Part shown: piece by piece, positions 924-60,101 of the stretch | Layout: every line of letters begins with the position of its first letter | Numbering within the stretch: the stretch's first letter is position 1 | Origin: Nitrospirota bacterium | GTDB lineage: Bacteria; Nitrospinota_A; UBA7883 | Length of the DNA: 64,000 nt | Direction: 5' to 3' | Assembly (NCBI GenBank): GCA_024275315.1 | Contig: JAJRZK010000027.1 | Location: forward strand, 68,714-132,713 | Translations under genes and position numbers: made by a program | Notes under the pieces: model-generated | What the model was told of the DNA's origin: nothing | The model's input: only the letters and a program-made list of their open reading frames with translations | The model's database searches: none

Positions 924-2507
924 TTATCCGTCCAGGTGGGCCCTGAGCTTTTCCACCGCGCGGTCGATACCGATCAACGTTATGAAACTTCCCATTTTAG
1001 GCCCCGAAGATTGGCCAAGAAACAGGCGGTACAGCGTGGCGAACCAATCTTTCATTTTCACATCATGTTTTTTGGCTACCTGAAACGCCATGTTCTGCGC
1101 CATTTCGACCGTTATTTCCTCACCGGCGTCACGTAGCCTTTCCAGCTCCGCCAAATAATCGCGTATGGCTTCGTCATACTCGGAACCGGCCGCCTCTTCG
1201 ACCCTGTTGGGCAGGTAAACCTCCCTGTAATAGGTCATCACTTTTTCAATCAGCTCGTCGTAATAGCCGATATTGTCCGCCACTTCCGGCTGGTACTTCA
1301 CCAGGTATTCCCGGACAATAGCGGGGTCCGTCGCCGACAGGGCGATGACCAGGTTGTATATCAGCGAGTAGGTGATAATATTATCACCATACAGGACCGC
1401 CGCGTGCGATCCCTTGGAAAGACGGGCGACGAACGGGACGGGGCTGTCCACCGACTCGCCGTCATACCTGGCCACCAGTTCCAGGTATCCATCAATGATC
1501 TTAGGCAACAGCGGCAACCCCATCTTCTTGGTCTGCTGCGGTTTTATATACATGAAGTAAAGTAGCGAATCGACAGGCCCGTAAGAGAGCCATTGCTCGA
1601 TGGAGACACCGTTGCCGATCTTTTTCGATATCTTCCTGCCGGTTTCGTCCAGGAAAAGCTCGTATTTGAAAAGCTCCGGCGGCTTGCCGCCGATCTCCCG
1701 GACGATTTTCGACGACAGCCTGCCAGACTCTACCAGGTCCTCGCCGTGCATCTCGTAATCAATCCCCAGGGCGAACCACCGCAACGCCCAGTCCACCTTC
1801 CACCCTACCTTGCAATGGCCGTCAAGGACGCTGGTCTCACCCGAGTGACCGCACGCCTGATATTTTCCATCGACGGATATGTCACACACGTATGATACGG
1901 ATCCGTTTTCAATGTCATAACCTGTCGGGCGTGTCGAGTATATCTTGCCGCAATTTTCGCAAACCGGAAAAAACGGGCTCCACGCCGCTCTTTTCTCCTC
2001 GCTTATGGTTTTTACGAACAGCTCCTTGATCTTTTCGTGTTTGCGCAAAATACGGATCAGGGGTTCGTTGAAAGCCCCGGAGCGGTATTGGTCCGTGGAA
2101 GAGGCGAACTCGTATTCAAACTCGAAAGAATCGAGAAACTCGCGCAGTCTCCTGTTCATGTTGTGGGCGTAAGACTCCTCCTCGCCGAAAGGGTCCGGAA
2201 TGGAGGTGAGCGGCTTGCCCAGATGCTGTTTGACCATGTCCCTGTTGGGGATGTTCGAGGGAGCCTCCCGCAAGCCATCCATATCGTCGGAAAAACATAT
2301 AAGGCGCGTATCGGTTTGCGGAGAAATGATCTTGAGCGCCTGGAGGACGAACGACGTCCGGGCTACTTCACCAAAAGTGCCGATATGAGGCATCCCGGAG
2401 GGGCCATACCCGGTTTGGGCGGTTATGGAGGTTTTGCCGAGTCTCTTGCAACGAGCGACGATGCGCCTGGCCTCCACGAAGGGCCATTGCTTGTAATCCA
2501 TTATCAT
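924..2507 (-). CDS. lysK: class I lysyl-tRNA synthetase
   Basis: 527 aa. HIGT (HIGH-like) motif in GYGPSGMPHIGTFGE, zinc-finger-like CENCGK, and overall archaeal/spirochete-type LysRS-I architecture. Confidence 0.88.
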   Translation of the reverse strand: MIMDYKQWPFVEARRIVARCKRLGKTSITAQTGYGPSGMPHIGTFGEVARTSFVLQALKIISPQTDTRLICFSDDMDGLREAPSNIPNRDMVKQHLGKPLTSIPDPFGEEESYAHNMNRRLREFLDSFEFEYEFASSTDQYRSGAFNEPLIRILRKHEKIKELFVKTISEEKRAAWSPFFPVCENCGKIYSTRPTGYDIENGSVSYVCDISVDGKYQACGHSGETSVLDGHCKVGWKVDWALRWFALGIDYEMHGEDLVESGRLSSKIVREIGGKPPELFKYELFLDETGRKISKKIGNGVSIEQWLSYGPVDSLLYFMYIKPQQTKKMGLPLLPKIIDGYLELVARYDGESVDSPVPFVARLSKGSHAAVLYGDNIITYSLIYNLVIALSATDPAIVREYLVKYQPEVADNIGYYDELIEKVMTYYREVYLPNRVEEAAGSEYDEAIRDYLAELERLRDAGEEITVEMAQNMAFQVAKKHDVKMKDWFATLYRLFLGQSSGPKMGSFITLIGIDRAVEKLRAHLDG

Positions 2508-2648
2508 TTATCCCATGCTTTAACAAAAGGGTGCGATTGTACCACGACAGGCGATTAACTCACGCCCAAAACCGAGCCCACAGCATGGCTGGTTGTCCCG
2601 GACGAGCCAAAACCGATAAGCGGGGCGCGTCACACCTACCCGGGCGTA

Positions 2649-2969
2649 TCACTTCGGCGAGGTCATCTCCTCCGGGAAGCTGGTCGAAAAAGTGTAGCTT
2701 TTCACTTTCATGGTTTTGTCGAATACCAGATACAAGGTTTTGGACATCGTCTGGCCGGAGGCCGATTTGAGATAACTGTATGTCCACGCCTCGTCCCCGT
2801 TATCCAACCCTGTCGAATATGGAGGGCCGAACCATTCCATTATTTCAACGGAGGTTGTAACGTTTTTTTGTATCGATCTTACTTTGGAAACGTCGAAATT
2901 GGCGCCGGTGGTGATGCTGACACATCCCGCGAAAACCAACACGCAGACCAGGAAGATTGCATGTTTCAC
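2649..2969 (-). CDS. BamE/SmpA-OmlA-like outer-membrane lipoprotein
   Basis: Lipoprotein signal MKHAIFLVCVLVFAGC, ~85 aa mature beta-rich domain, translationally coupled (ATGA-type overlap) to the upstream gene. Confidence 0.55.
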   Translation of the reverse strand: MKHAIFLVCVLVFAGCVSITTGANFDVSKVRSIQKNVTTSVEIMEWFGPPYSTGLDNGDEAWTYSYLKSASGQTMSKTLYLVFDKTMKVKSYTFSTSFPEEMTSPK

Positions 2970-3757
2970 GCCGCTCCCTCCAATCCTGTTCCGTTATCAT
3001 ATATACGCCAGGCTAGTTGATTTTCCCACTGGCTCATCCGCCCCTCCTTAAAATCAATGTCGAACAGCCGCTCAAAAGATTTTATGATGGCTTCACGCAA
3101 CCGTCCCGGATCCATTGGTGTTTTTCTGAAGTCGTTCACCGCGCCCATGCGCCCTCTGGCGTTTTCCCGGGCAGCCCGATCCTTCCATTTAAAACATGAC
3201 AGGTACCTGTCTGCGTCAATAGACAAAACTATCGACCCGTGCTGCAAAGCAGCCCCCCTGAGCCGACGCTGGGCGCTTCCGGCTATCTTGCGCCCGCCGG
3301 CTGTGATCTCGTGCCTTGTCTTCGATGCGAAACAGCACGCAGTGGACAGACCACCGCCTGAACCACTCTCAACCGGGTCCATCTTCACACCGCATTCCGA
3401 CAGAGCCATTCTCATGGCGGCGCTTATCCTGCCATGGATTTCCCTTAACGAACCGAAAATGGCGCTCGATACCGGAACCACGACTGAATACGTCACCTCT
3501 TCGTCATGCAACACAGCCCTCCCCCCGGTGGGGCGGCGCGCCAAGGACACCCCGTTTTTCTCCATAAAAGCCAAATCCGCCCATTCCCTGGGGCGCTGGG
3601 CGTATCCATACGATAAGGTAGGCCGGGTCCAGCCATAAAAACGTAAGGTAGGAAGCGGGTTTTGCTCTTGCGCGGATTGAACCAGCGCCATGTCCACCGC
3701 CATGTTCCAGGCTCCTGCGCCTGGTGGGTTTTCGATAAGACGCCAGGTTTCAGCCAT
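2966..3757 (-). CDS. lipoate-protein ligase / octanoyltransferase (BPL/LPL catalytic domain) family protein
   Basis: 263 aa, LplA/LipM-like catalytic domain (RRPTGGRAVLHD, GRKIAGSAQRR lysine motif). Confidence 0.78.
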   Translation of the reverse strand: MAETWRLIENPPGAGAWNMAVDMALVQSAQEQNPLPTLRFYGWTRPTLSYGYAQRPREWADLAFMEKNGVSLARRPTGGRAVLHDEEVTYSVVVPVSSAIFGSLREIHGRISAAMRMALSECGVKMDPVESGSGGGLSTACCFASKTRHEITAGGRKIAGSAQRRLRGAALQHGSIVLSIDADRYLSCFKWKDRAARENARGRMGAVNDFRKTPMDPGRLREAIIKSFERLFDIDFKEGRMSQWENQLAWRIYDNGTGLEGAA

Positions 3758-4104
3758 CAGTAAAGAGATTTTATACCCCGTTCACCCGTCCTGACACGAA
3801 TAGCGTCGTCTACCGGAATTATGAAAATTTTACCGTCGCCCAAAGAGCCTGTCCGGCAAATCGCCGCAAGAGCGTCGGAAAACTCCGCCAGGCTTTCATC
3901 GTCCACAACAATTTCTATGCAAATCCGATCCCGAAACTGTGGTATGGATCTATTCTCCTCCCCGTCCTTAGAGGCGATCTGGCTCATTGGTTTTCCTATC
4001 CCCTTGGCTTCGGTTACCGACATCCCCGGCGCGCCCAGCTCAAACAGCTTATGCCGGATCGGCTCCAGGTTTTCTTTTCGTGTGTAGCAACGGATCAGCT
4101 TCAT
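3757..4104 (-). CDS. P-II (GlnB-like) signal-transduction protein with a divergent T-loop
   Basis: 115 aa. GM.VTE.KG.G, IEIVVDD and GDGKIFIIPV...RVRTGE motifs of P-II. The T-loop lacks the canonical Tyr51 GAEY segment. Confidence 0.72.
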   Translation of the reverse strand: MKLIRCYTRKENLEPIRHKLFELGAPGMSVTEAKGIGKPMSQIASKDGEENRSIPQFRDRICIEIVVDDESLAEFSDALAAICRTGSLGDGKIFIIPVDDAIRVRTGERGIKSLY

Positions 4105-4222
4105 GGATAACCTTTGAACTGGTTTATATAATATGATCGATATTAGAAAAAATACGCTCCCGGGTCAAACTTTTCGACATCTCCCCCGGTCCGCTGTCCT
4201 TGCCTGGACCCGTGTGGCGCGA

Positions 4223-5479
4223 TCAATTCTTCCGTTTTCCGCTGTCTTGTGTTTTCACAGGGAGTTCGATTACGAAACGGCTCCCCTCGCCGGGGGCGCT
4301 TTCCACCCGGATCCTGCCTTTATGCGCTTTTACAGCCATATGGCAAAAGGCAAGCCCCAGCCCAGAGCCCCCTCGAGCTTTTTTCTCTCCCACCTGGTGG
4401 AATTTTTTGAAAATGCTTTTCTGAAGCTCTTTGGGAATACCGGAGCCCTGATCCGTTACGAGGATTTCCACGCAACCCCTGTCCGGCCGGTTTAAAGCTG
4501 TCAGCGTCACCTCGCTATTCTCGGGCGAATGTTCCGACGCGTTTATCAGCAGATTGGCCAGCACCCGCTCCATCAGGGGCCGGTCGGCGAAAAAGACAAC
4601 CTCATCCCCGGGCATGTCGGCTCTCGTTCTTATCTCATTTAGCTTGAACACATTCCTGAGCTTTCCCAGCGCGGTGTCCACAAGCTGTTTCGCATCGATT
4701 CTCTCCGGCTTGAGCTCTATCCTCCCCTCTTCCATCCTGCTGATGTCCAGGAGGTTGCCGATCATGCGCGACAGATCGCTGGTCCCGATTTCCGCAGATT
4801 CCAGGCAGGAAAGGGAAAATTTATCCAGGTCGCTCGACTTTATCATATCTATGTTCGCCCCGATTTCCTGGAGCGGCCCTTTCATGTCGTGTATGACCAT
4901 GTGTATCAGGTCCTGCTTCAGCTTTTCGAGCTTGCGAAGCTTTGAATTGGCTTTTTTGAGCTTGTTCCTTTCCCGCCTGATATCCTCGGTAAGTTTGGCG
5001 TTTTCCACCACCGGGCTTATTCTGCGCACCCATTTGTCCAGTATGACGGCTTCTTTTTTAGTGTACGGCCCCGAATCGATCTTGTCTGAAATGTTGAATA
5101 TCCCCACAACGCCCCCCTGGGTCTCGATAGGGGAGCTGATGAACATATTTTCCCCATTGCCACCAGGCCTTCGCATAAGACGCGCCAGCTCCGGCTGATC
5201 TTTTTTCGAGTCGCCTGTGCGGATGATTTTTCCGTGTCGATAAGCGCGAAGAGAGATCGAATCCTCACTGAGCTTTTGATGTTTACCGGTCAGGTCAAGG
5301 TTGGTCGAGGCTCTGACAACCAGGGTTTCATCCTCGATTATCATGATAGATCCGGAGCGCGAATTCATTTTCCCGAGAATAAACTTCAACAGGTCGCTCA
5401 GTTTCATATCGAAACTTCGTGACGTATCCATCATTATGTTCATCGCCCTTACAAGGGCTCTGGCTTCTGTGGAATCCAT
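4223..5479 (-). CDS. GAF-domain sensor histidine kinase
   Basis: N-terminal GAF, coiled coil, HisKA H-box (HDMKGPLQEI), HATPase_c (N, G1 and G2 boxes: NLLINASEHS, DQGSGIP, GGSGLGL). Confidence 0.82.
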   Translation of the reverse strand: MDSTEARALVRAMNIMMDTSRSFDMKLSDLLKFILGKMNSRSGSIMIIEDETLVVRASTNLDLTGKHQKLSEDSISLRAYRHGKIIRTGDSKKDQPELARLMRRPGGNGENMFISSPIETQGGVVGIFNISDKIDSGPYTKKEAVILDKWVRRISPVVENAKLTEDIRRERNKLKKANSKLRKLEKLKQDLIHMVIHDMKGPLQEIGANIDMIKSSDLDKFSLSCLESAEIGTSDLSRMIGNLLDISRMEEGRIELKPERIDAKQLVDTALGKLRNVFKLNEIRTRADMPGDEVVFFADRPLMERVLANLLINASEHSPENSEVTLTALNRPDRGCVEILVTDQGSGIPKELQKSIFKKFHQVGEKKARGGSGLGLAFCHMAVKAHKGRIRVESAPGEGSRFVIELPVKTQDSGKRKN

Positions 5480-5663
5480 ACTCCGCCTGAAATGAAATCG
5501 CCTTATTGTCCGCCAGCCATCAATAATACCATCTGCCAGATCGATTAATACCTGAAATATGCAATTTCATGACCTGTTTTTCAAAACGCCGATACCGGAA
5601 TTCCGGTTCACGGTCCGTACAAATAACCTTACAAAAGCAAGCGGATCAGCTAAGGAGAAGATC

Positions 5664-5909
5664 ATGAAACTTTCAGCTATGATTATCGCATGCGCCATGG
5701 TTATGGCGTTTTCGGCCGGATGCGCCTCTACCAACCAGCCCAAATCGGCCGCCACGGGCGCGGCTGTCGGGGCTCTTGCCGGCGCCATAATCGGCCACCA
5801 GTATGGAGAAGGCGGGCGTGACAAAGGCGCCTTGATCGGCGCAGCGCTTGGCGGTGGGGCGGGCCTGTTGTATGGCCAGCGGGAAGATCGTATCCACACA
5901 CGAAATTAG
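5664..5909 (+). CDS. glycine-zipper (YMGG/17 kDa-antigen-like) lipoprotein
   Basis: Internal ATG start at 5664 gives MKLSAMIIACAMVMAFSAGC lipobox, then GAAVGALAGAIIGH...GALIGAALGGGAGLL glycine-zipper repeats. The 5559 start of the track ORF lacks a signal peptide. Confidence 0.6.
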   Translation: MKLSAMIIACAMVMAFSAGCASTNQPKSAATGAAVGALAGAIIGHQYGEGGRDKGALIGAALGGGAGLLYGQREDRIHTRN

Positions 5910-5928
5910 AGCCATTAAACCTGCAAGC

Positions 5929-5957
5929 CCCATGGTCCCCACCGCGGGGACCATGGG
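5929..5957. terminator. perfect 12-bp-stem GC-rich palindromic hairpin (CCCATGGTCCCC-ACCGC-GGGGACCATGGG) downstream of the lipoprotein gene
   Basis: Seen directly in the sequence. There is no U-tract, so this is a terminator-like or protein-binding palindrome rather than a canonical intrinsic terminator. Confidence 0.35.
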
Positions 5958-6026
5958 CGCCGGGTGGGACGCGTTTATCCGCCAGCGAGGTTGACCATTA
6001 AATAACGGCAAGTCTATAATTGCCGG

Positions 6027-6440
6027 ATGTGTCCACAACCATCCAAGCAAGACAAGCTTTCGCATGACAAGGAACTTGTCGCGCAAATCATCCGGAACAA
6101 CGACGAGTCATGGTCGGTGTTCGTGGAAAAATACACGGATTGGGTTCTGTACAAATCAAAGGAATGGTGCACAGCTCACTGCCATTACACCGCAGGACAA
6201 CACTTTTGCGGGTTGACCAGCCTGTCCCTGCAACGGTCGGGGCGCCATGTCCACACGGAAATCCAGGAGTGCGACGAAGGTATGGACACGTATATCTGGA
6301 TTTTCGAACAACTGCGCAGGAGGATAAAAAAATATTCGGGGAAAAACAATTGTCTCCTGTCCACGTTCGTGTGGACCATCCTGAACTCCCGGGAACTGCA
6401 CATCGACTGGTTGAGATGGAAATATGGAAGAATTTTTTAG
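6027..6440 (+). CDS. ECF-type sigma-70 family factor, N-terminal part (region 2), separated from region 4 by a +1 frameshift in a T6 tract
   Basis: ELVAQIIRNNDESWSVFVEKYTDWVLY (region 2.1/2.2-like) and FVWTILNSRELHIDWLRWKYGR (region 2.3/2.4-like). The ORF ends in the TTTTTT tract at 6433-6438. Confidence 0.6.
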   Translation: MCPQPSKQDKLSHDKELVAQIIRNNDESWSVFVEKYTDWVLYKSKEWCTAHCHYTAGQHFCGLTSLSLQRSGRHVHTEIQECDEGMDTYIWIFEQLRRRIKKYSGKNNCLLSTFVWTILNSRELHIDWLRWKYGRIF

Positions 6441-7084: not shown

Positions 7085-8002
7085 ATGATGCACCCGAAGC
7101 TTTCCGAGTTGATCGCATATACCGATCCCGGCATGGAAGACGACGCGCGCGAGCGTGTCCGGGCTCATCTGGGGTTCTGCGCCCAGTGCATGGACCGGCT
7201 CATCTCGTTGCAGACTTTCAGGACAGCCGTGCGGACAGACGGGGAATCTGTAATTAGACCTTTCGAGTTGACACAAGAATGTGTCCCGACCGAAATAATG
7301 GGAGATTTTCTCGGAAACCGCCTCCCCCGGGCCGAACGTGATAGTTACTCCGAGCATGTAGTTGATTGCGACATATGTTTTGAAAGAGCCGCCTATTTCA
7401 CCCGCTCATCGGAGAAAATGGCAGAGGGTACGCTTCATATGGAAAAAACGCCGCAACGATACATAAAAGCGGTGGACAAAACATTCGAGGAGACAAAACC
7501 GAATCCGCGCAAAACAACCACCGTGGATTTGTTGCGAAGTTTTATGTCCAGGCCCATCACCGCATACGCACTTGCGGCCAGCTTCGTTTTCTTCCTGGCC
7601 TACACCAACATTTATAATCGCGCCCACATCGTAAAGCTCGATTCGAGCCAGGTATTCACCCTTTATGAAGCCCCGAAACAATCAGGCCCATCGTTCGGCT
7701 TTTCGGACGCGGGCCGCAAGCTTGGCGTGATCGAGGCCGGGCTTTATGTAAAGCTGACCGGCGACGGACAGGTGGTGTTCGGATGGAAACATGTCAAGGG
7801 CTCCGATGAATATCATTTCTCGCTGGTGGAGCTTCGGCCCACAACTCCCCTGGAAATCCACAATGTCAAAACCTCCTACCCTGGCGTTACCATCGGGAAA
7901 TCTTTTTTACAGTCCGGCAAAGCCTATCGATGGAGAGTCACCGGGGAAAAGGGGCCTGGTAAAATATTTGTCGCCACTGGACAATTCGTTTTTATTAACT
8001 AA
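7085..8002 (+). CDS. anti-sigma factor (zf-HC2 putative zinc finger, single TM helix, periplasmic domain)
   Basis: HLGFCAQCMDRL HxxxCxxC motif at the N-terminus, TM helix ITAYALAASFVFFLAYT, and a position immediately after the sigma factor gene. Confidence 0.7.
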   Translation: MMHPKLSELIAYTDPGMEDDARERVRAHLGFCAQCMDRLISLQTFRTAVRTDGESVIRPFELTQECVPTEIMGDFLGNRLPRAERDSYSEHVVDCDICFERAAYFTRSSEKMAEGTLHMEKTPQRYIKAVDKTFEETKPNPRKTTTVDLLRSFMSRPITAYALAASFVFFLAYTNIYNRAHIVKLDSSQVFTLYEAPKQSGPSFGFSDAGRKLGVIEAGLYVKLTGDGQVVFGWKHVKGSDEYHFSLVELRPTTPLEIHNVKTSYPGVTIGKSFLQSGKAYRWRVTGEKGPGKIFVATGQFVFIN

Positions 8003-8017
8003 CCTTACGAGGCTCAC

Positions 8018-9463
8018 ATGAAAAGCCCGTATGCCCTGTCGACCTCTCTTGTTGCGGCGCTACTGGTCATCATGGATCCCGCTGCCGGCCTGGCGCAAAT
8101 CACCCCCCCTGACGCAGGAAAACAATATTGGTTGCAAGGCTCTACAAAACTCGCCGACGACGATCCAAGATCGGTGCGCGCCCACCAGATTTTCGACAGG
8201 ACGCTGGCCGCCGCCGACAAGCGCCCGGGGCCTTCTCCGGAGCTGATAATACTGGATGAAGAAGGATTCCCCTGGGCGAGGTCGTTGCCCGATGGATCGA
8301 TCATCGTCACCCGGGGCGCGCTCGACATATGTTTCAGGGCGAAGACCGTCTCCGATGGAGACGCCAGGCTGGCTTTCGTGATCGGGCACGAGCTGAGCCA
8401 CCAGGTAAATGGCGATTTCTGGCATTTCTTTTTCTACCAGGGGGTTCATCCCGATTCCGCGAAAGACGAACAAACCAGAAAAACGCTGGAGCAGGTGATA
8501 AAAATCGCAAAAAGGTCGGATTCCGTCTCCGCAAAGGAGTTGCAGGCGGACCAGTACGGCCTGCTTTACGCGTCCCAGGCCGGGTATGACGTGAAAAGAA
8601 TCGTCGATATCGACACCAATTTTTTCCGGGAATGGACCGCGGCTACCAGCCCCGACCTGCTCGAAGGAATCGTGATGCAGGTAAACCATCCGAAAATAGA
8701 AGAGCGCTCCGCGGTGGCGCTGTCGACCTTGCGAAGGGTGGTCGAAAAAATCGAGGTGTTCGAAAAGGGTGTCGAGGCGTATAAAAAAGCAAGCTACACC
8801 GCCGCCATGTATTACTTCAAGGATTTTCTTTCCGTATACCAAAGCAGGGAAGGCTTTAACAACCTGGGGCTTGTCCATTACCAGATGGCGGCGGAGGAAT
8901 ACGCCAAATGGAAATCCGAAACGCCAATGTTCCGGCTGTCGCTGATAATAGACCCGACAACCCGCGCGCGCAACGCCTACAGACGCAGAAGATCGCCGGG
9001 ATCTTCCCTCACACGCAGGATGCGGCCGGAAAACGCGCATGAATCGCAGTTCCTCAAACACGCCGCCGCCGCCGCCGGTTATTTCCGAGAGGCGTGGCAA
9101 AGAGACCATACCTACGCCATGGCGCACAACAACCTGGCCTGTGTGCATTTTCTGAAATCAGAATACGCCAGCGCCGTCGGCGAGCTCGACAAGGCCATCT
9201 CGATCGACCCCGGCGTCCCGGAGGCTTTCAACAATCGCGCCGTAGCCTACCTCAAAATGGGCGAGCAACTGCGGGTGAACCTGGACAAAAAAGTGGAATC
9301 AAACCTTCTGGCGGCGTTGAAACTAAGATCCGATTACGAATACGCGCTGTTTAACATGGCGTATTTTCTTATGCAAAAAGGCAGGAACCGGGAAAAACAG
9401 GCGTATAAGAACCGCCTGGCAAAGCTCCACCCCGGATCGGAGCTACTTGCGCTGATACACTAG
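8018..9463 (+). CDS. secreted M48-family zinc metallopeptidase with C-terminal TPR repeats
   Basis: Signal peptide, HEXXH (VIGHELSHQ), and TPR-like helical repeats in the C-terminal half. Apparently co-operonic with the sigma/anti-sigma pair. Confidence 0.8.
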   Translation: MKSPYALSTSLVAALLVIMDPAAGLAQITPPDAGKQYWLQGSTKLADDDPRSVRAHQIFDRTLAAADKRPGPSPELIILDEEGFPWARSLPDGSIIVTRGALDICFRAKTVSDGDARLAFVIGHELSHQVNGDFWHFFFYQGVHPDSAKDEQTRKTLEQVIKIAKRSDSVSAKELQADQYGLLYASQAGYDVKRIVDIDTNFFREWTAATSPDLLEGIVMQVNHPKIEERSAVALSTLRRVVEKIEVFEKGVEAYKKASYTAAMYYFKDFLSVYQSREGFNNLGLVHYQMAAEEYAKWKSETPMFRLSLIIDPTTRARNAYRRRRSPGSSLTRRMRPENAHESQFLKHAAAAAGYFREAWQRDHTYAMAHNNLACVHFLKSEYASAVGELDKAISIDPGVPEAFNNRAVAYLKMGEQLRVNLDKKVESNLLAALKLRSDYEYALFNMAYFLMQKGRNREKQAYKNRLAKLHPGSELLALIH

Positions 9464-9509
9464 GATATTCGAGATATCGTTGAAGCCGGCGTCAGGCCAG
9501 GCGCAACGT

Positions 9510-10526
9510 TCACTCCCCGTCGGCGGAATGCTGTATATCGCTAAGCGAGTATTGTTCCATCCACAGAAACACCAGGCCGGGGATTATCATCATCATGAAC
9601 ATGACAATATGGATCACCAGCGCCACGGAAAGCGCCAGCTCGCTATCAACACCGTAAAACATAAGCCCCGCGATGGTGGCGGCGTGGAACACACCGATAA
9701 AACCGGGGGCTGAAGGGATCATCACGCCTATCACCTGGCTTACGTTGACCAGGTAGCCGGAGCTGAACGGCAGATCGATGTCAAACGCCATGAAGATCAT
9801 GTAATTGTAAATCCCGGCTGTCCCCCATATGATCGCACTCCAGATAATAACCCGGCGCAGGCGATGACCATGATCGAGAGAATCCAGGCCTTTCCTCAGC
9901 GACTCCAGTATCTCCCTGGTTTTTTCCCCGCTTTTTCCCGGCATCAAGCCGGTCAATGTGTCGACAAGCCACACCATGACTCTGAACTGTTTGTGAAAAA
10001 GGTACATCCCCGCAAAAAACGCGATAAAGAACATCGAAGCCGAAACTCCCGCCACCCGCAAGGTTTTCCAGAACTCCAACTGTGATTCCGGCGGCTCTAT
10101 GAACGCGAAGATCAGCATGATCATCACCACGATAGACAACCCGTCGAAGGAGCGCTCTATCACCACAGTCCCGAACGCGGAGCTTTTTGGTATCGACTCT
10201 CTCCTGGCGATCACATACGCCCTCGCCAGCTCGCCTATCCTGGCAGGCAGAACCATGTTCGCCATGAACCCGATGCAAAGAGCGGTAAACGAGCTCCATC
10301 GCGAAATTTCCTTGATGGGCGCGATAAAATGCCTCCACCTGGCCCCGCGCATCCAGAGGAATGAAAAATTGAAAACCGCCGCCGCAACCACCCACCGGTA
10401 GTCGGCCATTTTCATCGACGCCCACACCTTGCCCATGTCCATTTTCATCACCGCCCACGCGATAAAGAAAAGACTGACGCCCCACCCTATCCAGATGATG
10501 ATGTTTTTTCCGGTCGATTTCATCAT
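9510..10526 (-). CDS. UPF0104/lysylphosphatidylglycerol-synthase-TM-domain (flippase-like) membrane protein
   Basis: 338 aa with ~8 TM helices. YbhN/MprF-TM-like pattern (ARIGELARAYV, SAFGTVVIER). Confidence 0.72.
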   Translation of the reverse strand: MMKSTGKNIIIWIGWGVSLFFIAWAVMKMDMGKVWASMKMADYRWVVAAAVFNFSFLWMRGARWRHFIAPIKEISRWSSFTALCIGFMANMVLPARIGELARAYVIARRESIPKSSAFGTVVIERSFDGLSIVVMIMLIFAFIEPPESQLEFWKTLRVAGVSASMFFIAFFAGMYLFHKQFRVMVWLVDTLTGLMPGKSGEKTREILESLRKGLDSLDHGHRLRRVIIWSAIIWGTAGIYNYMIFMAFDIDLPFSSGYLVNVSQVIGVMIPSAPGFIGVFHAATIAGLMFYGVDSELALSVALVIHIVMFMMMIIPGLVFLWMEQYSLSDIQHSADGE

Positions 10527-10527
10527 C

Positions 10528-11490
10528 TCAGCCCAGCCTCGGGTCTATCCCGCATCCGCCGGGACCCAGGTTGGCCAGGACATGCCTCGTCTTTTCTATA
10601 TCCGCCTCTATCTGGGCCTGCAACTCCCTGACCGAACCGAAGCTCTTCTCGTTGCGTAATCTTTCCACGAAAAACACCTCTATTTCCGAGCCGTATATGT
10701 CGTCCCCGTAATCGAGCAGGTGAACTTCCACAATAAAGTCATCCCGGTCGAACGTGGGATTATAGCCGATGTTAACCACGCCGTCCAACAGCTCGCCATC
10801 CCCGAGGCTCACTATCACGGCGTAAACCCCCACAGCCGGAATAACCTCGTAGGGCGTGTCCAGGTTAGCGGTGGGAAACCCGATGGCCCTTCCCCGCTTG
10901 TAGCCGGAGACGACTTTGCCTTCGATAGAGTAGCACCGGTCCAGCATCTTCCTGGCCTTGCCCAGGTCGCCGTCGTTGAGATATTGACGGATACGGGTGG
11001 AGGATACGCGCTCGTTATCGACTGTAACCGGGTCCACTATCTCCACGTTGAACCCCAGTTCTTTCCCCATTTTTTTCAAATACTCTATGCTACCCGCTTT
11101 CCCCTGTCCGAACGAATAGTCATGCCCCACCATCACGGTGTCCATGTTCAGCCCGGCCATGAGCTTCTTGGCGAAGTCCCTGGGATGCATCCTTGCAAAC
11201 GCCCGTGTAAAATCGGCCATTATGCAGATGTCAATACCATACGCCGCGATAAGCTCCATTTTCTTCTTGAAAGTGCAAAGCAGGCTCAGGTTTTGATCCG
11301 GAGCCAGGATTTTCAGCGGATGAGGATCGAAAGTGTATACGACAGAAGCGCCGCCTATCTTTTTCGCCAGCTCGATAACGCGTCGGAATATCAACTGGTG
11401 ACCGATATGAACTCCGTCGAAATTGCCAAGGGTGACCACCAGCCTGGCGGGCTTGTCATGGAAATTGCGAAGGCCGCGGATTATCTTCAC
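10528..11490 (-). CDS. ribF: bifunctional riboflavin kinase / FMN adenylyltransferase
   Basis: GNFDGVHIGHQ nucleotidyltransferase motif at the N-terminus and a riboflavin-kinase C-terminal domain (GFPTANL). 320 aa. Confidence 0.9.
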   Translation of the reverse strand: MKIIRGLRNFHDKPARLVVTLGNFDGVHIGHQLIFRRVIELAKKIGGASVVYTFDPHPLKILAPDQNLSLLCTFKKKMELIAAYGIDICIMADFTRAFARMHPRDFAKKLMAGLNMDTVMVGHDYSFGQGKAGSIEYLKKMGKELGFNVEIVDPVTVDNERVSSTRIRQYLNDGDLGKARKMLDRCYSIEGKVVSGYKRGRAIGFPTANLDTPYEVIPAVGVYAVIVSLGDGELLDGVVNIGYNPTFDRDDFIVEVHLLDYGDDIYGSEIEVFFVERLRNEKSFGSVRELQAQIEADIEKTRHVLANLGPGGCGIDPRLG

Positions 11491-12795: not shown

Positions 12796-13659
12796 ATGCG
12801 TAATCATTTGTTCTTTTTGTCCACAGACCCGCACGCCAGCCCTTTTGACGTCAACATAGCCCTCGATTCCGGGTTTGACGTTGTTATTCCCTATCCCATG
12901 GTCACACCCGAAAACACCGAATCGCTCACTCACGACATTATTTTTTCCCGCGGCCCGAAAGGGACCTCGCGCTCCGGTATTTTCATAGGAGGGTCTGATG
13001 TCGCGTTGACGGAAAAAATAGCCGGAACAGTCCGCAAATCCATGTTCGCCCCATTTACGGTATCGACATTTTCGGATCCGAAAGGGGCGTACACCACCGC
13101 CGCCGCGCTCACCGCGAAAACCGGCAAAGCGGCTGGGGGATTGAAAGACAAGCGAGCCATGATACTCGGCGGAACTGGTCCGGTGGGGAGCCTAACCGCC
13201 GTCCTGTGCGCCCGCGAAGGAGCCATAGTGACCATAGTGACCTCCAGAGACCAGGTGGCTGGCGACCGGGTGGCGGCGGAGCTTGAGAAAAATTACTCGG
13301 TGAAAATCGGAGCGGCGTCCGCCAGTACTGAGGATGAAAGGCTCGCCCTGATGAAGAAATCGGACATCGCCATCGCGGCGGTAAAGGCGGGTGTAAAACT
13401 AATGAGCAAAGAAGCTCTTGAAAAAATCGAATCACCCCTGCTTATCGCCGACGTGAACGCGACTCCTCCATACGGGTTCGAAGGGTTGGAACCGAACGAC
13501 GACGAGAAACAGATATCCGGCCACGTGCGCGGCATCGGAGCCCTTGCGACCGGAGCCATCAAGCACAAGGTGGAAACGGGTATTTTCAAATCAATGCTCC
13601 AACAAAAAATCACAGCCGGGCTGGACACAGCGTATGAACTCGCCAAAACCCTGGTCTGA
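12796..13659 (+). CDS. mtdA: NAD(P)-dependent methylene-tetrahydromethanopterin/tetrahydrofolate dehydrogenase (MtdA family)
   Basis: 287 aa. FDVN...GFDVV N-terminal Mpt_N-like motif, TTAAA...KTGKAAGG and GTGPVGSLTAVLCAREGA Rossmann segment, matching the MtdA layout. Confidence 0.7.
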   Translation: MRNHLFFLSTDPHASPFDVNIALDSGFDVVIPYPMVTPENTESLTHDIIFSRGPKGTSRSGIFIGGSDVALTEKIAGTVRKSMFAPFTVSTFSDPKGAYTTAAALTAKTGKAAGGLKDKRAMILGGTGPVGSLTAVLCAREGAIVTIVTSRDQVAGDRVAAELEKNYSVKIGAASASTEDERLALMKKSDIAIAAVKAGVKLMSKEALEKIESPLLIADVNATPPYGFEGLEPNDDEKQISGHVRGIGALATGAIKHKVETGIFKSMLQQKITAGLDTAYELAKTLV

Positions 13660-14374
13660 CCCCACCCCCGTCGACACGGAACTGCTATCGGAACTGAAGC
13701 GCGGTGTGGTCGAATATGACGAGGCGGTTGTAAGATCTGTCTGCCAGACGATAATAGACCGGCGGATGGACGCCTACATGGCTATATTCGAGGGGCTCGT
13801 CCCCGGCATGGAGCAGGTTGGGCGCTTGTATGACGAGCAGGAATATTTTGTGCCGGAGCTGTTGATGTGCGCGGACACTCTATACGCGGGACTGGGCCTG
13901 TTGCAACCCCACGTAATCAGCGGCGGCGGAACTGGAGGAAGCAAAGGGAACGTAATACTGGGAGCCATAGAAGGAGACATTCACGACATAGGAAAAAACC
14001 TGGTGAAAATGGTTTTCAAGATAGCCGGGTTCGATGTGGAAGACCTTGGGAGCGACGTGCCCATCTCCAGGTTTGTAAAAAAAGCCGCCGCCCTGGACAG
14101 GCCCCTGGTCTGCGTTTCGATGATGATGTCGACCTGTTTTTCCCGCGCGAAAGAACTCGTCGAGAGGATAAGGGAAGCCGCGCCGGAAGCCAGGGTGATG
14201 ATCGGCGGATCGATTGTGACAGAGCAAACCGTTGAACAGCTGGGATGCGATGGCACCGCCGACGACGCGCACCACGCGTTGCGCGAAGCGCTTGCGATAA
14301 TGACCTCCGTCGGCAAGCTAGACAAGCTTGGGGAGCCGGACAATGAGCGTGGCAGGCCCGCCCTCGCGGGATAA
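13634..14374 (+). CDS. cobalamin-binding corrinoid protein (B12-binding_2 cap + B12-binding Rossmann domain)
   Basis: DxHxxG motif (GDIHDIGKN), SxL (VSMMMS), GG (MIGGS), and an FVPELLMCAD cap-helix motif. The internal ATG at 13634 overlaps the mtdA end, while the track ORF starts at 13544. Confidence 0.75.
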   Translation: MNSPKPWSDPTPVDTELLSELKRGVVEYDEAVVRSVCQTIIDRRMDAYMAIFEGLVPGMEQVGRLYDEQEYFVPELLMCADTLYAGLGLLQPHVISGGGTGGSKGNVILGAIEGDIHDIGKNLVKMVFKIAGFDVEDLGSDVPISRFVKKAAALDRPLVCVSMMMSTCFSRAKELVERIREAAPEARVMIGGSIVTEQTVEQLGCDGTADDAHHALREALAIMTSVGKLDKLGEPDNERGRPALAG

Positions 14375-15722
14375 GCTGGTGAAAACGCTTGGCGAATTCA
14401 TCGGGACCGGCGAAGCGTCAAAGGAGATAGACCGCGTATACTCCACCCTTGGGATTGACGCCCGATCGCCATTGTCATCGGAGGATTTTGAAAAGATCAG
14501 GGAGGCTCTGGAAAAATCGCTGGGCCGCGAAGTGGGTGGGGCCATGGCCCGGGTCATGACAACCGGCAGGCTGGAGATAAAGCCCGAAGATGTCGGCCGG
14601 TTTTACGAGTCGTTTCACAGGATGCGAAACCAGCTCCTCAACCGCCAGCGCCGCGCCGACAACCTTAACGAGGAGTTGGCCAGGCTCAAGGAGTTGTATG
14701 AAAACGTGAGCTTGTCCATCCCCATAGGCCTATGCTCGGTGGACATGAATTTCGTGATAACCACCTGGAACAGGGAGATGGAAGCGCTGACAGGAAGAAT
14801 GGCCTCGGACACCGTCGGCGCCAAGGTGCCTGATATCCTTCGCGAATACGAACCGATGATGGTAAAAGCCATCCAGCTACGTGAAGTTGTGCGAGAGAAC
14901 AGGTTTCCCGCTGCCGGCCGTGACGGACGCAAAAGAATCGAAAACCTGACGTTGAGCCCGCTGGTGGACAGGTACGATGTTCTGCGTGGTCTGGTGATCC
15001 TTGTCCAGGATATAACCGACCATGTGGAAATGGAGCGAAACATCCTCCAGGCGGAAAAGCTGGCGTCCGTGGGCAGGCTGGCGGCGGGCGTGGCGCACGA
15101 GGTGGGTAACCCGCTCACATCCATATACGCCCTTGTACAGGAGCTGATGGGAGAAGACGGGGAAAACAAAAAGTTCAGAAACGAATCCCTCACGCTGGTA
15201 GCCCAGCATATAGGAAGGATCAACAACATAGTAAACTCCCTGGTGGAGTATTCCAGGCAAAAATCCGTGAAGTTCACACCCTCGTCCGTAAAGGAGATTG
15301 TCGACAAGGCGACACCCCTGCTCAAACTCGACAACAGGGGCCAGCTCATAGACATCGAGATAGACATACAAGAGGACCTGCCCCCCGTGTTGTGTGACCC
15401 GGACCAGATTCAGCAGGTGCTCATAAACCTGCTTTTAAACGCCGCAGACGCGATCAATGGCAAGGGAACCGTCATTGTCAAAGCCGAAAAATCATCCCCG
15501 TCGAGCGTTGCGATTTCCGTGAAAGATCATGGGCAGGGCATGACAGGGGATGTGGCCAAACACGCGATCGCGCCTTTTTTCACCACCAAACCCGTTGGAA
15601 AAGGCGCCGGGCTGGGGCTCTACGTCTGCTACAACATCCTGGAAAACCACAACTCCAGCCTGAAGATACAAAGCGCCCCGGGCAAAGGCGCCAGGATCGA
15701 ATTTGAACTGGAGACCGCCTGA
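14328..15722 (+). CDS. PAS-domain sensor histidine kinase (NtrB/AtoS-like)
   Basis: PAS segment, H-box (AAGVAHEVGNPLTSI), N/G1/G2 boxes (NLLLNAADA, DHGQGM, GKGAGLGL). The start may be the ATG at 14343. Confidence 0.8.
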   Translation: MGSRTMSVAGPPSRDKLVKTLGEFIGTGEASKEIDRVYSTLGIDARSPLSSEDFEKIREALEKSLGREVGGAMARVMTTGRLEIKPEDVGRFYESFHRMRNQLLNRQRRADNLNEELARLKELYENVSLSIPIGLCSVDMNFVITTWNREMEALTGRMASDTVGAKVPDILREYEPMMVKAIQLREVVRENRFPAAGRDGRKRIENLTLSPLVDRYDVLRGLVILVQDITDHVEMERNILQAEKLASVGRLAAGVAHEVGNPLTSIYALVQELMGEDGENKKFRNESLTLVAQHIGRINNIVNSLVEYSRQKSVKFTPSSVKEIVDKATPLLKLDNRGQLIDIEIDIQEDLPPVLCDPDQIQQVLINLLLNAADAINGKGTVIVKAEKSSPSSVAISVKDHGQGMTGDVAKHAIAPFFTTKPVGKGAGLGLYVCYNILENHNSSLKIQSAPGKGARIEFELETA

Positions 15723-16759
15723 TGTACGCACCCCGAATACTCATAGCGGACGATGAAGAGACCATCTGCGCCGTGTTGCAAAGAGTGCTGGAAAAAGATG
15801 GCTATCGTGTGGACATTTGCCACGATGGCGACACGGCCATAAAGATGGCCTCCCAGACCGTGTACGACCTCGTGCTGACCGACCTGAAAATGCCCGGAAG
15901 CGACGGGCTGGAAGTTCTGAGAAAAGTGGCGGGGGGAACCACCGGAGCCGCCGTAATGCTCATGACGAATTATTCCACCGTGGAGACCGCCGTGGAAGCC
16001 ATGCGCCAGGGAGCGCGGGATTACATCATAAAACCGTTCGTTCACGACGATATCAGGATATCCGTCGCCAACACCCTGCGCGACACGCGGCTGGCGCGGG
16101 AAAACAAGCTTTTAAAAGAGGAGCTCAACAGGTCGATCAACCTGGAGGAGTTTATCGGGTCGTGCCCGAAAATAATGGACGTGTTCAAGTTGGTGAACAA
16201 AGTGGCTCCCACAGATTCGAGCGTCCTGGTCATCGGGGAGAGCGGCGTCGGCAAGGAACTGATTGCAAGAGCCATACACCGCCATTCCCAAAGAGCAAAC
16301 GAGCCTTTCGTTCCGGTAAACTGTGGAGCCCTGCCTGCAGAGCTTATGGAGTCGGAACTGTTCGGCCACGTAAAGGGAGCCTTCAGCGGCGCGGTGTCCA
16401 GCAAGCCGGGCCTGTTCCAGGAGGCCCGGGGAGGAGCCATTTTCTTCGATGAAATCGGAGAGCTTCCACCGGCGTTGCAGGTGAAGTTGTTACGAGTGTT
16501 ACAGGACCAGGTGATCCGGCCAGTCGGGTCCAGCAAATCCTTCAAGTGCGACGTAAGGATCATCACCGCCACGAACAAAAAGCTCGATATCGAAGTCGAA
16601 AACAAGACATTCCGCGAAGACCTGTATTACAGGATCAACGTGCTTACGATAGAGTTGCCCCCTTTAAGAGAGCGCGGCCAGGACATAGAGGAGCTGGCCG
16701 TACATTTCCTGAAAAAGCACGCTTCCAGGCTGAACCGGAACGTGGAAAGCATCCAGTAG
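15722..16759 (+). CDS. sigma-54-dependent response regulator (REC + AAA+), N-terminal 345 aa ending at an in-frame TAG
   Basis: REC (ILIADDEE...LVLTDLKMPG), Walker A GESGVGKE, GAFSGA, ESELFGH, Walker B. The TAG at 16757-16759 is in frame with the downstream HTH ORF. Confidence 0.8.
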   Translation: MYAPRILIADDEETICAVLQRVLEKDGYRVDICHDGDTAIKMASQTVYDLVLTDLKMPGSDGLEVLRKVAGGTTGAAVMLMTNYSTVETAVEAMRQGARDYIIKPFVHDDIRISVANTLRDTRLARENKLLKEELNRSINLEEFIGSCPKIMDVFKLVNKVAPTDSSVLVIGESGVGKELIARAIHRHSQRANEPFVPVNCGALPAELMESELFGHVKGAFSGAVSSKPGLFQEARGGAIFFDEIGELPPALQVKLLRVLQDQVIRPVGSSKSFKCDVRIITATNKKLDIEVENKTFREDLYYRINVLTIELPPLRERGQDIEELAVHFLKKHASRLNRNVESIQ

Positions 16760-16765
16760 GAAACG

Positions 16766-17095
16766 ATGAGGTTGATAAAATCATATCACTGGCCCGGAAA
16801 CGTTCGGGAGCTGGAAAACGTCATGGAGCGAGCGTTGATACTGGAGGAGTCAACCAGCGTTACGCCCGCGTCTCTGCCGGACAAGATCATCCGTCCAAGT
16901 GACGACACACAGGCCGAATCGATAGAGCACAGGCTCTCTATCGACGAGTATATTAAAAGCTTCATAAAAAGGTACGAAAACGTCTACCGCGAAAAGGAAA
17001 TCGCCAACATGCTCGGTATCAGCCGCAAATCGCTGTGGGAAAGGCGTAAAAAATGGGGAATGGAAAGAACTAACGCAAAGCGGGAGAACGTGTGA
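16766..17095 (+). CDS. C-terminal part ([10 protein letters not shown] + Fis-type HTH) of the same sigma-54 regulator, downstream of the in-frame stop
   Basis: [23 protein letters not shown] and [20 protein letters not shown], in the same reading frame as 15722..16759 (codons read IQ-TAG-ETMRLIK). Confidence 0.65.
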
Positions 17096-17838
17096 GGGCA
17101 AACAACACCAAGGTCGCCCTGGTGACAGGCGCCGCGCGCCGCCTGGGGGCGTGTGTCGTCCGGACCCTGGCGGAGCATGGGTACAAGGTGGCCATACATC
17201 ACCGCAACGCAAAGCAGGAGGCGGACGAGCTGGCGCAGGTTGTCAATGTAAAACAGGGAGAAAACATGGCGGCCGTTTTCATGGCCGACCTGTCGGAAAG
17301 AACCGCCTGCCAGAAGCTGGTGCGATCGGTCGTAAACACATTCGGAAGGCTCGACCTGCTGGTCAACAACGCCTCGTTTTTCGCAAAAACGCCATTGGAC
17401 ACCATCACCGCCGAGGATATCGAAAAGAGCCATTCCATCCACGTGATGGCTCCTGCGATGATGTCTCTGGCGGCGATTGAAAGCTTGAGAAACAGCGAGC
17501 CCGGACACATAATAAACATGCTGGATATATACGCCGATTATCCGAGGAAGGATTTTATGGCGTACACGATTGCCAAGGCGGGACTGAAATCATTAACAAA
17601 ACAACTGGCGCTGGAGCTGGCTCCGGATATACTTGTAAACGCCGTCGCGCCAGGGGCGATACTTAAGCCTGCGCAAACGGAGGACGCGAGCGGTTTCAAC
17701 AAAGCCCTGGACCGGATTCCGCTCAAACGATTCGGAACGGCCGGTGATATCAGCGCGGCTGTAATGTTTCTTTCGCAGGCGGAATATATAACGGGCCACA
17801 CCATCGTGGTGGACGGCGGCCGGTCACTATACATTTAA
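17092..17838 (+). CDS. SDR-family oxidoreductase, pteridine-reductase (PTR1/FolM)-like
   Basis: GTG start overlapping the upstream stop (GTGA). [16 protein letters not shown] and YxxxK motifs. 248 aa. Confidence 0.78.
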
Positions 17839-20069: not shown

Positions 20070-20557
20070 ACCGGTCGATTCGCGTAGGTAACGGGTTTGA
20101 TACGCACCGTCTTGTGGAAGGCCGTCCATTGATTCTCGGAGGCGTCAGGATCGATCATCCACTGGGGCTCAAAGGACATTCGGACGCAGACGTACTCACC
20201 CACGCCGTGTGCGACGCGTTGCTCGGGGCGGCCTGTCTCGGCGACCTGGGGCAAATGTTTCCGGACACGGATGAGCGATACAGGAACATATCCAGCTTGA
20301 AACTGCTGGCCATGGCAAACGACCGCATTACCAGCGACGGATGGGGTGTGATCAACATAGACGTGACAGTTGTAGCGCAGGCGCCCAGGATCGCGCCTCA
20401 TTCAGGCTCCATGCGCGACAACATAGCGCAAGCCACCGGAACCAGCCCCAGACAGGTCTCCATAAAAGCCACCACAACGGAAAAGCTGGGGTTTACAGGC
20501 CGGGGCGAAGGGATCGGGGCGTGGGCCGTGGCGCTTATAGGAAAAATCGAGCCTTGA
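20066..20557 (+). CDS. ispF: 2-C-methyl-D-erythritol 2,4-cyclodiphosphate synthase
   Basis: MNRSIRVGNGFDTHRL...GHSDADV...DVTVVAQAP are canonical IspF motifs. The real start is the internal ATG at 20066 of track ORF 19784..20557. Confidence 0.9.
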   Translation: MNRSIRVGNGFDTHRLVEGRPLILGGVRIDHPLGLKGHSDADVLTHAVCDALLGAACLGDLGQMFPDTDERYRNISSLKLLAMANDRITSDGWGVINIDVTVVAQAPRIAPHSGSMRDNIAQATGTSPRQVSIKATTTEKLGFTGRGEGIGAWAVALIGKIEP

Positions 20558-21999
20558 ACAATCCAAGAGTACGATTCGCCCCCAGCCCATCCGGAGCGGC
20601 GCACATAGGGAACGGAAGAACGGCGCTGTTCAACTGGCTGTACGCCAGGGCCAACAGCGGCAAGTTCATCGTGCGCATAGAAGACACCGACCAGGCAAGA
20701 TCATCCGAAACATCGGAGCGGCTGGTTTTAGATACGCTGTCCAGGCTTGGGCTCCGCTGGGACGAGGGGCCGGATATCGGTGGTCCGTACGGCCCGTACA
20801 GGCAATCGGAGCGCCAACACCTGTACGCCAGGGCTGTGCGGGAGCTGATTGAAACGAACGACGCGTACCCGTGCTACTGCTCCCCCCGGGAGCTGGAAAT
20901 GGAGCGCAAGGCGTCGATCGCGGCGCGTAAACCGCCCCGTTACTCCGGCAAGTGCAGGAAATTGACAGTCGCCGAACGGTCCGCCATGGAAAAAGGTGGC
21001 ATCAGGCCCGCCATCCGCTTCAAGATAAAAGGCGGATCAGTCGAGTTCGACGACGCGGTGCGGGGCGGGGTTTCTTTCGATACGGCCGATTTCGGGGATT
21101 TTATCATAATGCGTTCAGACGCCACGGCGTCGTATCTTCTGGCCTCCGCTGTCGACGATATGGAGATGCGGATAACGGACGTGATCCGCGGCGAGGATCA
21201 CCTGTCCAACACGCCGATGCAGATACTGATCATGCGCGCGCTGGGGCACGAACCGCCACGCTACGCGCACCTGCCGATGATACTCGGGCCCGACGGAAGT
21301 AAACTTTCAAAACGTCATGGATCGGCCGATATCCACGAGTTGCTCGAAGCCGGATACCTGCCGGACGCCATCAATACCGCCATGGCGATGCTGGGATGGT
21401 CGGGAGTGGATGGGAATGAGGTGGAAACGCTGGAGGCGATAGCGGCTAAATTCGACCTGGGCGGGGTATCGCGTTCCCCGTCGCGATACGATAAAAAACG
21501 GCTGGATAACCTCAATTCCAGGGCGTTGCGCTCGATGGATACTGGCGAATTGCTCTCCCTCGTCAGTCCGGCCCTGGAGCGGTCGGGGTTTCCGATCGAC
21601 AGGTTCGGTGAGGAGCATATGCGCGCGATGATCGAAACGGCGCGGGAGGGCGCCAACACGCCAGCGGACGTCGTGTCGCATATGGGCCAGTTCGCCGGCG
21701 CTGTAAAACCTGATGACGCCACGTTGACGATACTCAAAGCGCCGGAAACATCGCAAGTCGCCGACGCGCTGAAAAAGGCGTTGTCGGGACTGTCCACTAT
21801 CGATACGGAGAAATACAAGTCTGTGATAGAATCGGTCTCTTTGCAAACCGGGCTGAAAGGCAAACGCCTGTATCAACCTGTCCGGGCCGTCATCACCGGA
21901 GCCGCCAGCGGGCCAAAGCTTGCGGATATATTCACCATACTCGGCCCGGAGGAATTATTGAAACGGATAGACAAACTAGAAGCGCTGGAGAGAGCTTGA
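20554..21999 (+). CDS. gltX: glutamyl-tRNA synthetase (paralog 1)
   Basis: TTG start overlapping the ispF stop (TTGA). RVRFAPSPSGAAHIGNGRTALFNWLYA (HIGH), KLSKR (KMSKS-like). ~481 aa. The track ORF starts far upstream inside ispF. Confidence 0.85.
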   Translation: MNNPRVRFAPSPSGAAHIGNGRTALFNWLYARANSGKFIVRIEDTDQARSSETSERLVLDTLSRLGLRWDEGPDIGGPYGPYRQSERQHLYARAVRELIETNDAYPCYCSPRELEMERKASIAARKPPRYSGKCRKLTVAERSAMEKGGIRPAIRFKIKGGSVEFDDAVRGGVSFDTADFGDFIIMRSDATASYLLASAVDDMEMRITDVIRGEDHLSNTPMQILIMRALGHEPPRYAHLPMILGPDGSKLSKRHGSADIHELLEAGYLPDAINTAMAMLGWSGVDGNEVETLEAIAAKFDLGGVSRSPSRYDKKRLDNLNSRALRSMDTGELLSLVSPALERSGFPIDRFGEEHMRAMIETAREGANTPADVVSHMGQFAGAVKPDDATLTILKAPETSQVADALKKALSGLSTIDTEKYKSVIESVSLQTGLKGKRLYQPVRAVITGAASGPKLADIFTILGPEELLKRIDKLEALERA

Positions 22000-59890: not shown

Positions 59891-60101
59891 TAATATCCAT
59901 CCGGAACTCGGCCGGGGCTCGCCGCTGTCAACAATTTGACACAAGCGCCCATACCCGTCGCCCTGACCTGAGATATAACTCCATTAATATTAAATTGTTA
60001 ACTCGATCGCACGTCTTTCCGGAGTCGCGGCGCAAAACCGGCCACTCCGGCACGGGACTTGCTCACTTTACAGTCAGGAACAGTTGACTTTGGACAGGTA
60101 A

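Follow-up and report, generated by a model that had tools for sequence, protein, structure and literature searches.

In the stretch of DNA analysed here (64,000 nucleotides, hereafter the window), the reading frame of a putative two-component regulator is interrupted by an in-frame stop codon. Specifically, the ORF list and the sequence both give an ORF at 15722-16759 on the forward strand, which starts at ATG 15722, comprises 345 codons and ends in a TAG at 16757-16759. The frame of this ATG carries on past the TAG for a further 111 codons (16760-17092), followed by a TGA at 17093-17095. An earlier note on this DNA had described two ORFs sharing a frame and separated by this single TAG, a description borne out by the sequence and by a gap-free alignment to the orthologues. 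In the downstream part, annotators call an ORF of 109 amino acids from the ATG at 16766. The features of the locus and of its neighbours are the following.

12808-13659, forward strand: Mpt_N-like dehydrogenase, a cassette gene conserved alongside the kinase-regulator pair
13634-14374, forward strand: B12-binding-domain protein, likewise a cassette gene conserved alongside the kinase-regulator pair
14343-15722, forward strand: cognate PAS histidine kinase, whose TGA overlaps the ATG of the regulator (TGATG)
15722-16756, forward strand: upstream ORF of 345 codons, with REC, coiled linker, sigma-54 AAA+ alpha/beta subdomain and only lid helix 1
15737-16060, forward strand: REC domain (Pfam), with the Asp54 codon at 15881-15883
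16154-16654, forward strand: sigma-54 AAA+ alpha/beta subdomain, with Walker A at 16235-16258 and the GAFSGA loop at 16376-16393
16757-16759, forward strand: in-frame TAG, codon 346, with the Pro codons CCG, CCC, CCC and CCA at orthologous loci
16760-17095, forward strand: in-frame continuation of 111 codons plus TGA, with lid helices 2 and 3, a variable linker and a Fis-type HTH
16766-16768, forward strand: ATG of Met349, ancestral, in frame, 6 nt past the TAG and the sole plausible restart codon
16805-16807, forward strand: codon of the sensor-II Arg362, by alignment to NtrC1 R357
about 16940-17056, forward strand: Fis-type HTH, within the continuation 3' of the TAG
17092-17838, forward strand: short-chain dehydrogenase, whose GTG start overlaps the TGA of the regulator (GTGA)

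When the two parts are joined through the TAG, a reading of 457 residues is obtained, in which Pfam recognises Response_reg (PF00072) at residues 6-113 (E 2.6e-26), Sigma54_activat (PF00158) at residues 145-311 (E 1.3e-68) and AAA_lid_14 (PF25601) at residues 316-398. The match to HTH_8 at residues 425-445 is weak (20.9 bits against a cut-off of 22 bits); despite this score, a stretch of 14 residues in the HTH region is conserved in the family, as the ortholog alignment shows. The best PDB matches of the joined reading are 4L4U (E 3e-97) and 1NY5 (E 1e-94). The phospho-acceptor D54 of the receiver domain is invariant in the alignments, and the Walker A motif GESGVGKE, R304 and N285 align to catalytic residues of NtrC1. 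In particular, R304, N285 and R362 correspond to R299, N280 and R357, which are the arginine finger, sensor 1 and sensor 2 of NtrC1, respectively (PMC3841738). Orthologues with 61-74% identity, nearly all of them 456-457 amino acids long, align with the joined reading from end to end and without a gap at the junction. Judged from these alignments, the continuity across the TAG reflects homology rather than the chance succession of two ORFs. The earlier note had also pointed to a paralogue at 56032 that reads through the equivalent position in a stretch of 29 residues, and this is confirmed for the paralogue at 56032-57228. As for the L1 loop of the AAA+ domain, the sequence GAFSGA, which 3 out of some 120 intact homologues share, is a natural, rare variant. 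It was considered as a sign of decay and ruled out, both because intact homologues carry it and because the PspF T86S variant still binds sigma-54 elements (PMC3467059). The locus is an ordinary disrupted gene of a conventional NtrC-family regulator, and the ORFs of 345 and 109 amino acids, which stand as separate proteins in public collections, should be merged in annotation into one disrupted NtrC-family gene.

The regulator is part of a four-gene cassette, made up of the Mpt_N-like dehydrogenase, the B12-binding protein, the PAS kinase and the regulator itself, that is conserved down to 69% identity. The overlap between the regulator and the short-chain dehydrogenase downstream is also kept, as GTGA in the closest relative (L001, a JGI metagenome contig) and as ATGA in a second orthologous locus (L082). 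Since this overlap is conserved, translation of the dehydrogenase probably depends, through coupling, on the regulator being translated in full. A scan of the window for the sigma-54 (-24/-12) promoter consensus returned 19 matches, where chance alone would give 27, and not one near the cassette; rpoN and the target promoters lie outside the window.

The position of the stop within the fold determines what the shortened product retains. According to the earlier note, the TAG marks the connection of the AAA+ domain to the HTH module; its place is instead inside the AAA+ lid (PF25601, residues 316-398), ahead of the sensor-II motif of 10 residues. Aligned by HMMER to NtrC1 of A. aeolicus (1NY5 and 4L4U), the TAG falls at about NtrC1 residue 341, and the sensor-II residue R362 lies 16 residues C-terminal of the stop. 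In the AlphaFold model of the orthologue P0001, which is 74% identical, of equal length and modelled with a mean pLDDT of 83, lid helix 1 spans residues 321-337 and is followed by a loop (338-345), by helix 2 (346-354), by the sensor-II helix (361-374) and by the HTH helices (407-445). According to this model, the TAG takes the place of the first residue of the second AAA+ lid helix, where a surface loop ends. As the stop is located at lid helix 2 and before sensor II, the product of 345 amino acids misses part of the ATPase as well as the DNA-binding domain. Specifically, a complete lid and the sensor-II arginine on one polypeptide are found only in the hypothetical joined reading, and the C-terminal Fis-type HTH, whose helices 407-445 are coded 3' of the stop, is absent from the 345-residue product. 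The truncation had been described as giving a regulator without its DNA-binding domain; this is correct as far as the loss of that domain is concerned, but not if it is taken as the only loss, the ATPase module being incomplete too.

The codon in question was then compared among relatives. A protein cluster at 90% identity contains three sequences, namely the two fragments of the window (345 and 109 amino acids) and one protein of 457 amino acids encoded by L001, the only other contig found at an identity of at least 90% among about 15 billion proteins. L001 is syntenic with the window over 21 genes, its regulator gene is 90.6% identical at the DNA level, and its codon 346 is CCG (Pro). At the loci L082, L085 and L084, with protein identities of 74, 73 and 69%, the same codon is CCC, CCC and CCA, respectively. 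The ancestral codon 346 is reconstructed from these sequences as a proline codon (CCN). Examination of this codon in orthologues had been proposed as a check in the earlier note, and it returns a sense codon at four of four loci and a stop at none; the single-base sense ancestors that had been envisaged (TCG, CAG or TAC), however, occur in none of these relatives. Given CCN at all four orthologous loci, the TAG requires two adjacent changes (CC to TA). Ordinary point mutation seldom alters two neighbouring bases of one codon, and this weighs against a nonsense allele. In the family alignment, columns 339-348 are the most variable of all and residue 346 is P, A, R, E or D among more distant relatives, which makes a tolerated Ser or Gln intermediate plausible; a single tandem mutation is a plausible route from CC to TA likewise. 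The region of the stop holds the densest first- and second-position differences of the gene (5 in 30 nt, uncorrected P = 0.002). A local misassembly patch, considered in this connection, is unsupported, as the dense differences lie in the very loop that varies most within the family. Neither a metagenome scan with a pattern leaving codon 346 free nor one with a fully codon-degenerate pattern for a stretch of 18 residues found a further copy of the locus, and a scan of genome contigs with P0122 returned generic NtrC motifs, with a best match of 50% identity and no close relative.

The segment 3' of the stop shows no decay. Compared with L001, the window has a dN/dS ratio of 0.073 over codons 1-345 and of 0.093 over codons 347-457, with dS of about 0.36-0.47. 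When amino-acid changes are polarised with the three more distant loci as outgroups, the branch of the window has five before the stop and none after it, and the branch of L001 has eight upstream and four downstream of the corresponding position. This lack of decay implies that the stop is far younger than the split from L001, or that it is not real, or that the segment is still translated. To the extent that an undecayed downstream segment is equally expected of an artefact or of a segment still translated, it counts against a nonsense allele. At the same time, the internal stop is absent from relatives and the homologous frame is kept on both sides of it, which is the pattern by which recent nonsense pseudogenes are recognised.

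On balance, the TAG is probably real, a nonsense mutation of very recent date by which a conserved NtrC-type regulator of group 1 has been knocked out. The earlier note had listed a nonsense mutation, a sequencing error and stop-codon readthrough as options; the nonsense mutation is favoured, the sequencing error keeps its place as a less likely option, and readthrough is disfavoured by the evidence on recoding. Were the TAG read as a sense codon, by means of pyrrolysine, a suppressor tRNA or programmed readthrough, a full-length protein would be made by design, and the frame and its conservation do run on across the TAG. Yet the TAG behaves as a normal terminator in this DNA. The roughly 50 gene-sized ORFs of the window end in TGA (23), TAA (15) or TAG (13, the internal TAG included), and, in keeping with the remark in the earlier note that TAG is an ordinary stop elsewhere, 12 other genes of the window end in TAG, dnaJ among them. 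These genes stop where their L001 orthologues stop, and two of them, with ends at 7050 and 9463, have TGA in L001. Moreover, searches of the 64-kb window returned no tRNA and no Rfam family, a scan of its approximately 50 genes no protein resembling PylS, PylB, PylC or PylD, and a full-text literature search no link of pyrrolysine use to Nitrospinae-like bacteria. In addition, every orthologue has a sense codon at this position, that is, the TAG is not conserved. The view that genome-wide recoding is unlikely agrees with the 12 normal TAG stops, with a window free of tRNA and Pyl genes and with a stop found in no relative; decoding of the TAG as sense is scarcely credible.

An artefact of sequencing, assembly or polishing, in which case the true gene would be intact, with 457 codons and with Pro, Ser or Gln encoded at position 346, is unlikely but has to be taken seriously. 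It would fit the 111 downstream codons being as well kept as those upstream, with no derived amino-acid change on the branch of the window, the membership of the gene in a conserved cassette, and the occurrence of the TAG allele on one public contig only. The quality of the consensus looks good, however: of 21 genes common to the window and L001, 20 are collinear and without frameshift or internal stop, the regulator being the sole exception, no N occurs in the window, and no cluster of anomalies is seen outside the naturally variable loop. If the contig was built from short reads, substitution errors in its finished consensus would be rare, and it would be rarer still for two neighbouring bases to be wrong together or for an error to coincide with a real change. 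A different possibility is that the stop is real and that the regulator is made as two polypeptides, translation restarting at ATG 16766 to give a fragment of 109 amino acids that reassembles with the fragment of 345 amino acids. The gap between TAG and ATG is only 6 nt, a distance over which reinitiation can still work; for E. coli, it has been found substantial even at +2 nt and dependent on the gene pair at +14 nt (PMC10666635). The P0001 model puts the break between two helices, where the surface loop that joins them ends, the segment 3' of the stop is undecayed, and the change from CCGGA to TAGGA makes for a marginally better SD pairing (-4.2 kcal/mol, against -3.5 kcal/mol for the L001 allele). 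This pairing is nevertheless ordinary, the median of genes being -4.0 kcal/mol and 34% of random internal in-frame ATGs pairing equally well or better; the ATG is ancestral, as Met349 is present in most close orthologues, and was not made for a restart; no relative carries a split gene; and a recent origin of the stop accounts for the missing decay just as well. An evolved restart site at ATG 16766 is thus ruled out by the ordinary SD pairing and the ancestral ATG. No split-lid bEBP is known to us, and none appears in the bEBP review PMC7175178 or in PMC10696123 and PMC3841738. Production of the regulator as two reassembling polypeptides is therefore improbable, and it is distinctly improbable that a REC-AAA+ part of 345 amino acids and a part of 109 amino acids with lid helices and HTH, linked by reinitiation over 6 nt, form a working sigma-54 activator with downstream coupling kept. 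Such a restart, if true, would also preserve the translational coupling of the dehydrogenase, and the locus would be of mechanistic interest only under this unlikely reading.

The favoured explanation, a recent nonsense allele, can be worked out as follows. A proline codon (CCN) at position 346 would have become TAG by two adjacent changes, in tandem or by way of Ser or Gln as an intermediate that a variable surface loop would tolerate. With translation ending after residue 345, the product would retain the receiver, the alpha/beta subdomain of the ATPase and a single lid helix. Without lid helices 2 and 3, the sensor-II arginine and the HTH, it would be capable neither of productive ATP hydrolysis nor of enhancer binding. 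The ATPase cycle of bEBPs requires the alpha-helical subdomain and sensor II (PMC10696123, PMC3841738), and group 1 members need the HTH for enhancer binding (PMC7175178); for these reasons, the product of 345 amino acids is expected to be inactive and to serve, at most, as a phosphate sink for its kinase. The regulator would be effectively knocked out, save for traces of full-length protein arising from basal misreading of UAG. As regards the downstream gene, ribosomes would halt 332 nt short of the GTG of the dehydrogenase, and its coupled translation would probably be reduced; a polar effect is expected over such a gap, since termination-reinitiation fails, or is largely lost, over tens of nucleotides (PMC10666635). 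If the allele is real, a two-component system encoded in a conserved cassette has probably ceased to give any output in this strain, which would offer a natural knockout for the study of this four-gene sensory cassette.

The comparison with known systems places the locus more precisely. The joined reading has the same REC, clade-6 AAA+ and HTH architecture as group 1 bEBPs such as NtrC, A. aeolicus NtrC1 and NtrC4, ZraR and DctD (PMC7175178). It shares with them Walker A, the arginine finger, sensor I and sensor II, as well as an adjacent and overlapping kinase gene, and differs from them in the TAG at codon 346, in GAFSGA instead of GAFTGA and in the weak HTH_8 match. The product of 345 amino acids resembles the group 5 bEBPs, FlgR of Helicobacter and CtcC of Chlamydia, in being a REC-AAA+ protein without HTH (PMC7175178). 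Group 5 members, however, keep the AAA+ C domain and lack the D domain only (domain table of PMC7175178), whereas the product considered here stops after lid helix 1, lacks sensor II and has orthologues that are all full length with an HTH; as group 5 retains the AAA+ C domain, it provides no precedent for this truncation. In pyrrolysine and amber-suppression systems, TAG is rare as a terminator, pylTSBCD or a CUA tRNA is present and the TAG is conserved, a combination at variance with what is found in the window. With termination-reinitiation coupling (PMC6728339, PMC10666635) the locus has in common a TAG and an ATG at a workable distance of 6 nt, and the TGATG and GTGA of the operon are classical coupling overlaps; in contrast to those systems, the TAG/ATG junction arose here within a single gene, and nothing indicates that it was selected. 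The locus also resembles young bacterial pseudogenes that owe their origin to a single nonsense mutation: apart from the two adjacent changes that separate the TAG from the ancestral codon, it shows, as they do, one internal stop in a gene under purifying selection, absent from relatives and accompanied by no secondary lesions.

The NtrC-type sigma-54 response regulator lies in a four-gene cassette together with an Mpt_N-like protein (resembling the methylene-H4MPT dehydrogenase N-terminal domain), a B12-binding-domain protein and a PAS histidine kinase. The same cassette is found on the contig of a syntenic relative (L001) and at three further orthologous loci:

12808-17095, window, four-gene cassette
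7096-11374, L001, four-gene cassette
2040-6374, L082, four-gene cassette
2041-6374, L085, four-gene cassette
2085-6374, L084, four-gene cassette

The cassette is kept in relatives whose regulator identity is as low as 69%, including where the flanking genes are different, and the overlaps between its genes (about 26-32 nt) are also conserved. These findings suggest that the cassette may be a sensory unit, linked to cobalamin, light or redox state.

In the sigma-54 contact loop of the regulator (window 16376-16393), GAFSGA replaces GAFTGA. This substitution, T222S, is derived on the window's branch, and the GAFSGA form is rare, being present in just 3 of about 120 intact homologues.

A scan of the whole window for sigma-54 promoters returned 19 matches versus 27 expected, a total not above chance. 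The top promoter-like site, at 60048-60063 (+), CGGCACGGGACTTGCT, has one mismatch to the consensus TGGCAC-N5-TTGCW and is located 39 nt 5′ of the GTG start (60102) of a gene for an 873-aa TPR protein. The paralogous enhancer-binding protein lacking the receiver domain (56032-57228) is encoded upstream of this site.

Three other proteins encoded in the window are as follows:

34663-38964 (-), very large protein, 1433 aa
39785-41608 (+), homocysteine S-methyltransferase (PF02574)-methylenetetrahydrofolate reductase (PF02219) fusion
41988-43109 (+), short Rho homologue, 373 aa

The first contains two BcrAD/BadFG-type ATPase (activase) domains and DUF2229, with a weak match to the 2-hydroxyglutaryl-CoA dehydratase D-component. 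The fusion is encoded by a single ORF of 607 aa. The Rho homologue possesses RNA-binding and ATPase domains but gives no Pfam match to an N-terminal Rho_N domain.

Neither tRNA genes nor Rfam families at the gathering threshold were found across window positions 1-64000. The window encodes the following aminoacyl-tRNA synthetases:

924-2507 (-), class I lysyl-tRNA synthetase (PF01921)
20554-21999 (+), glutamyl-tRNA synthetase paralogue
49370-50785 (-), glutamyl-tRNA synthetase paralogue

A single 64-kb window holds the class I lysyl-tRNA synthetase and both glutamyl-tRNA synthetase paralogues; the two paralogues share about 37% identity.
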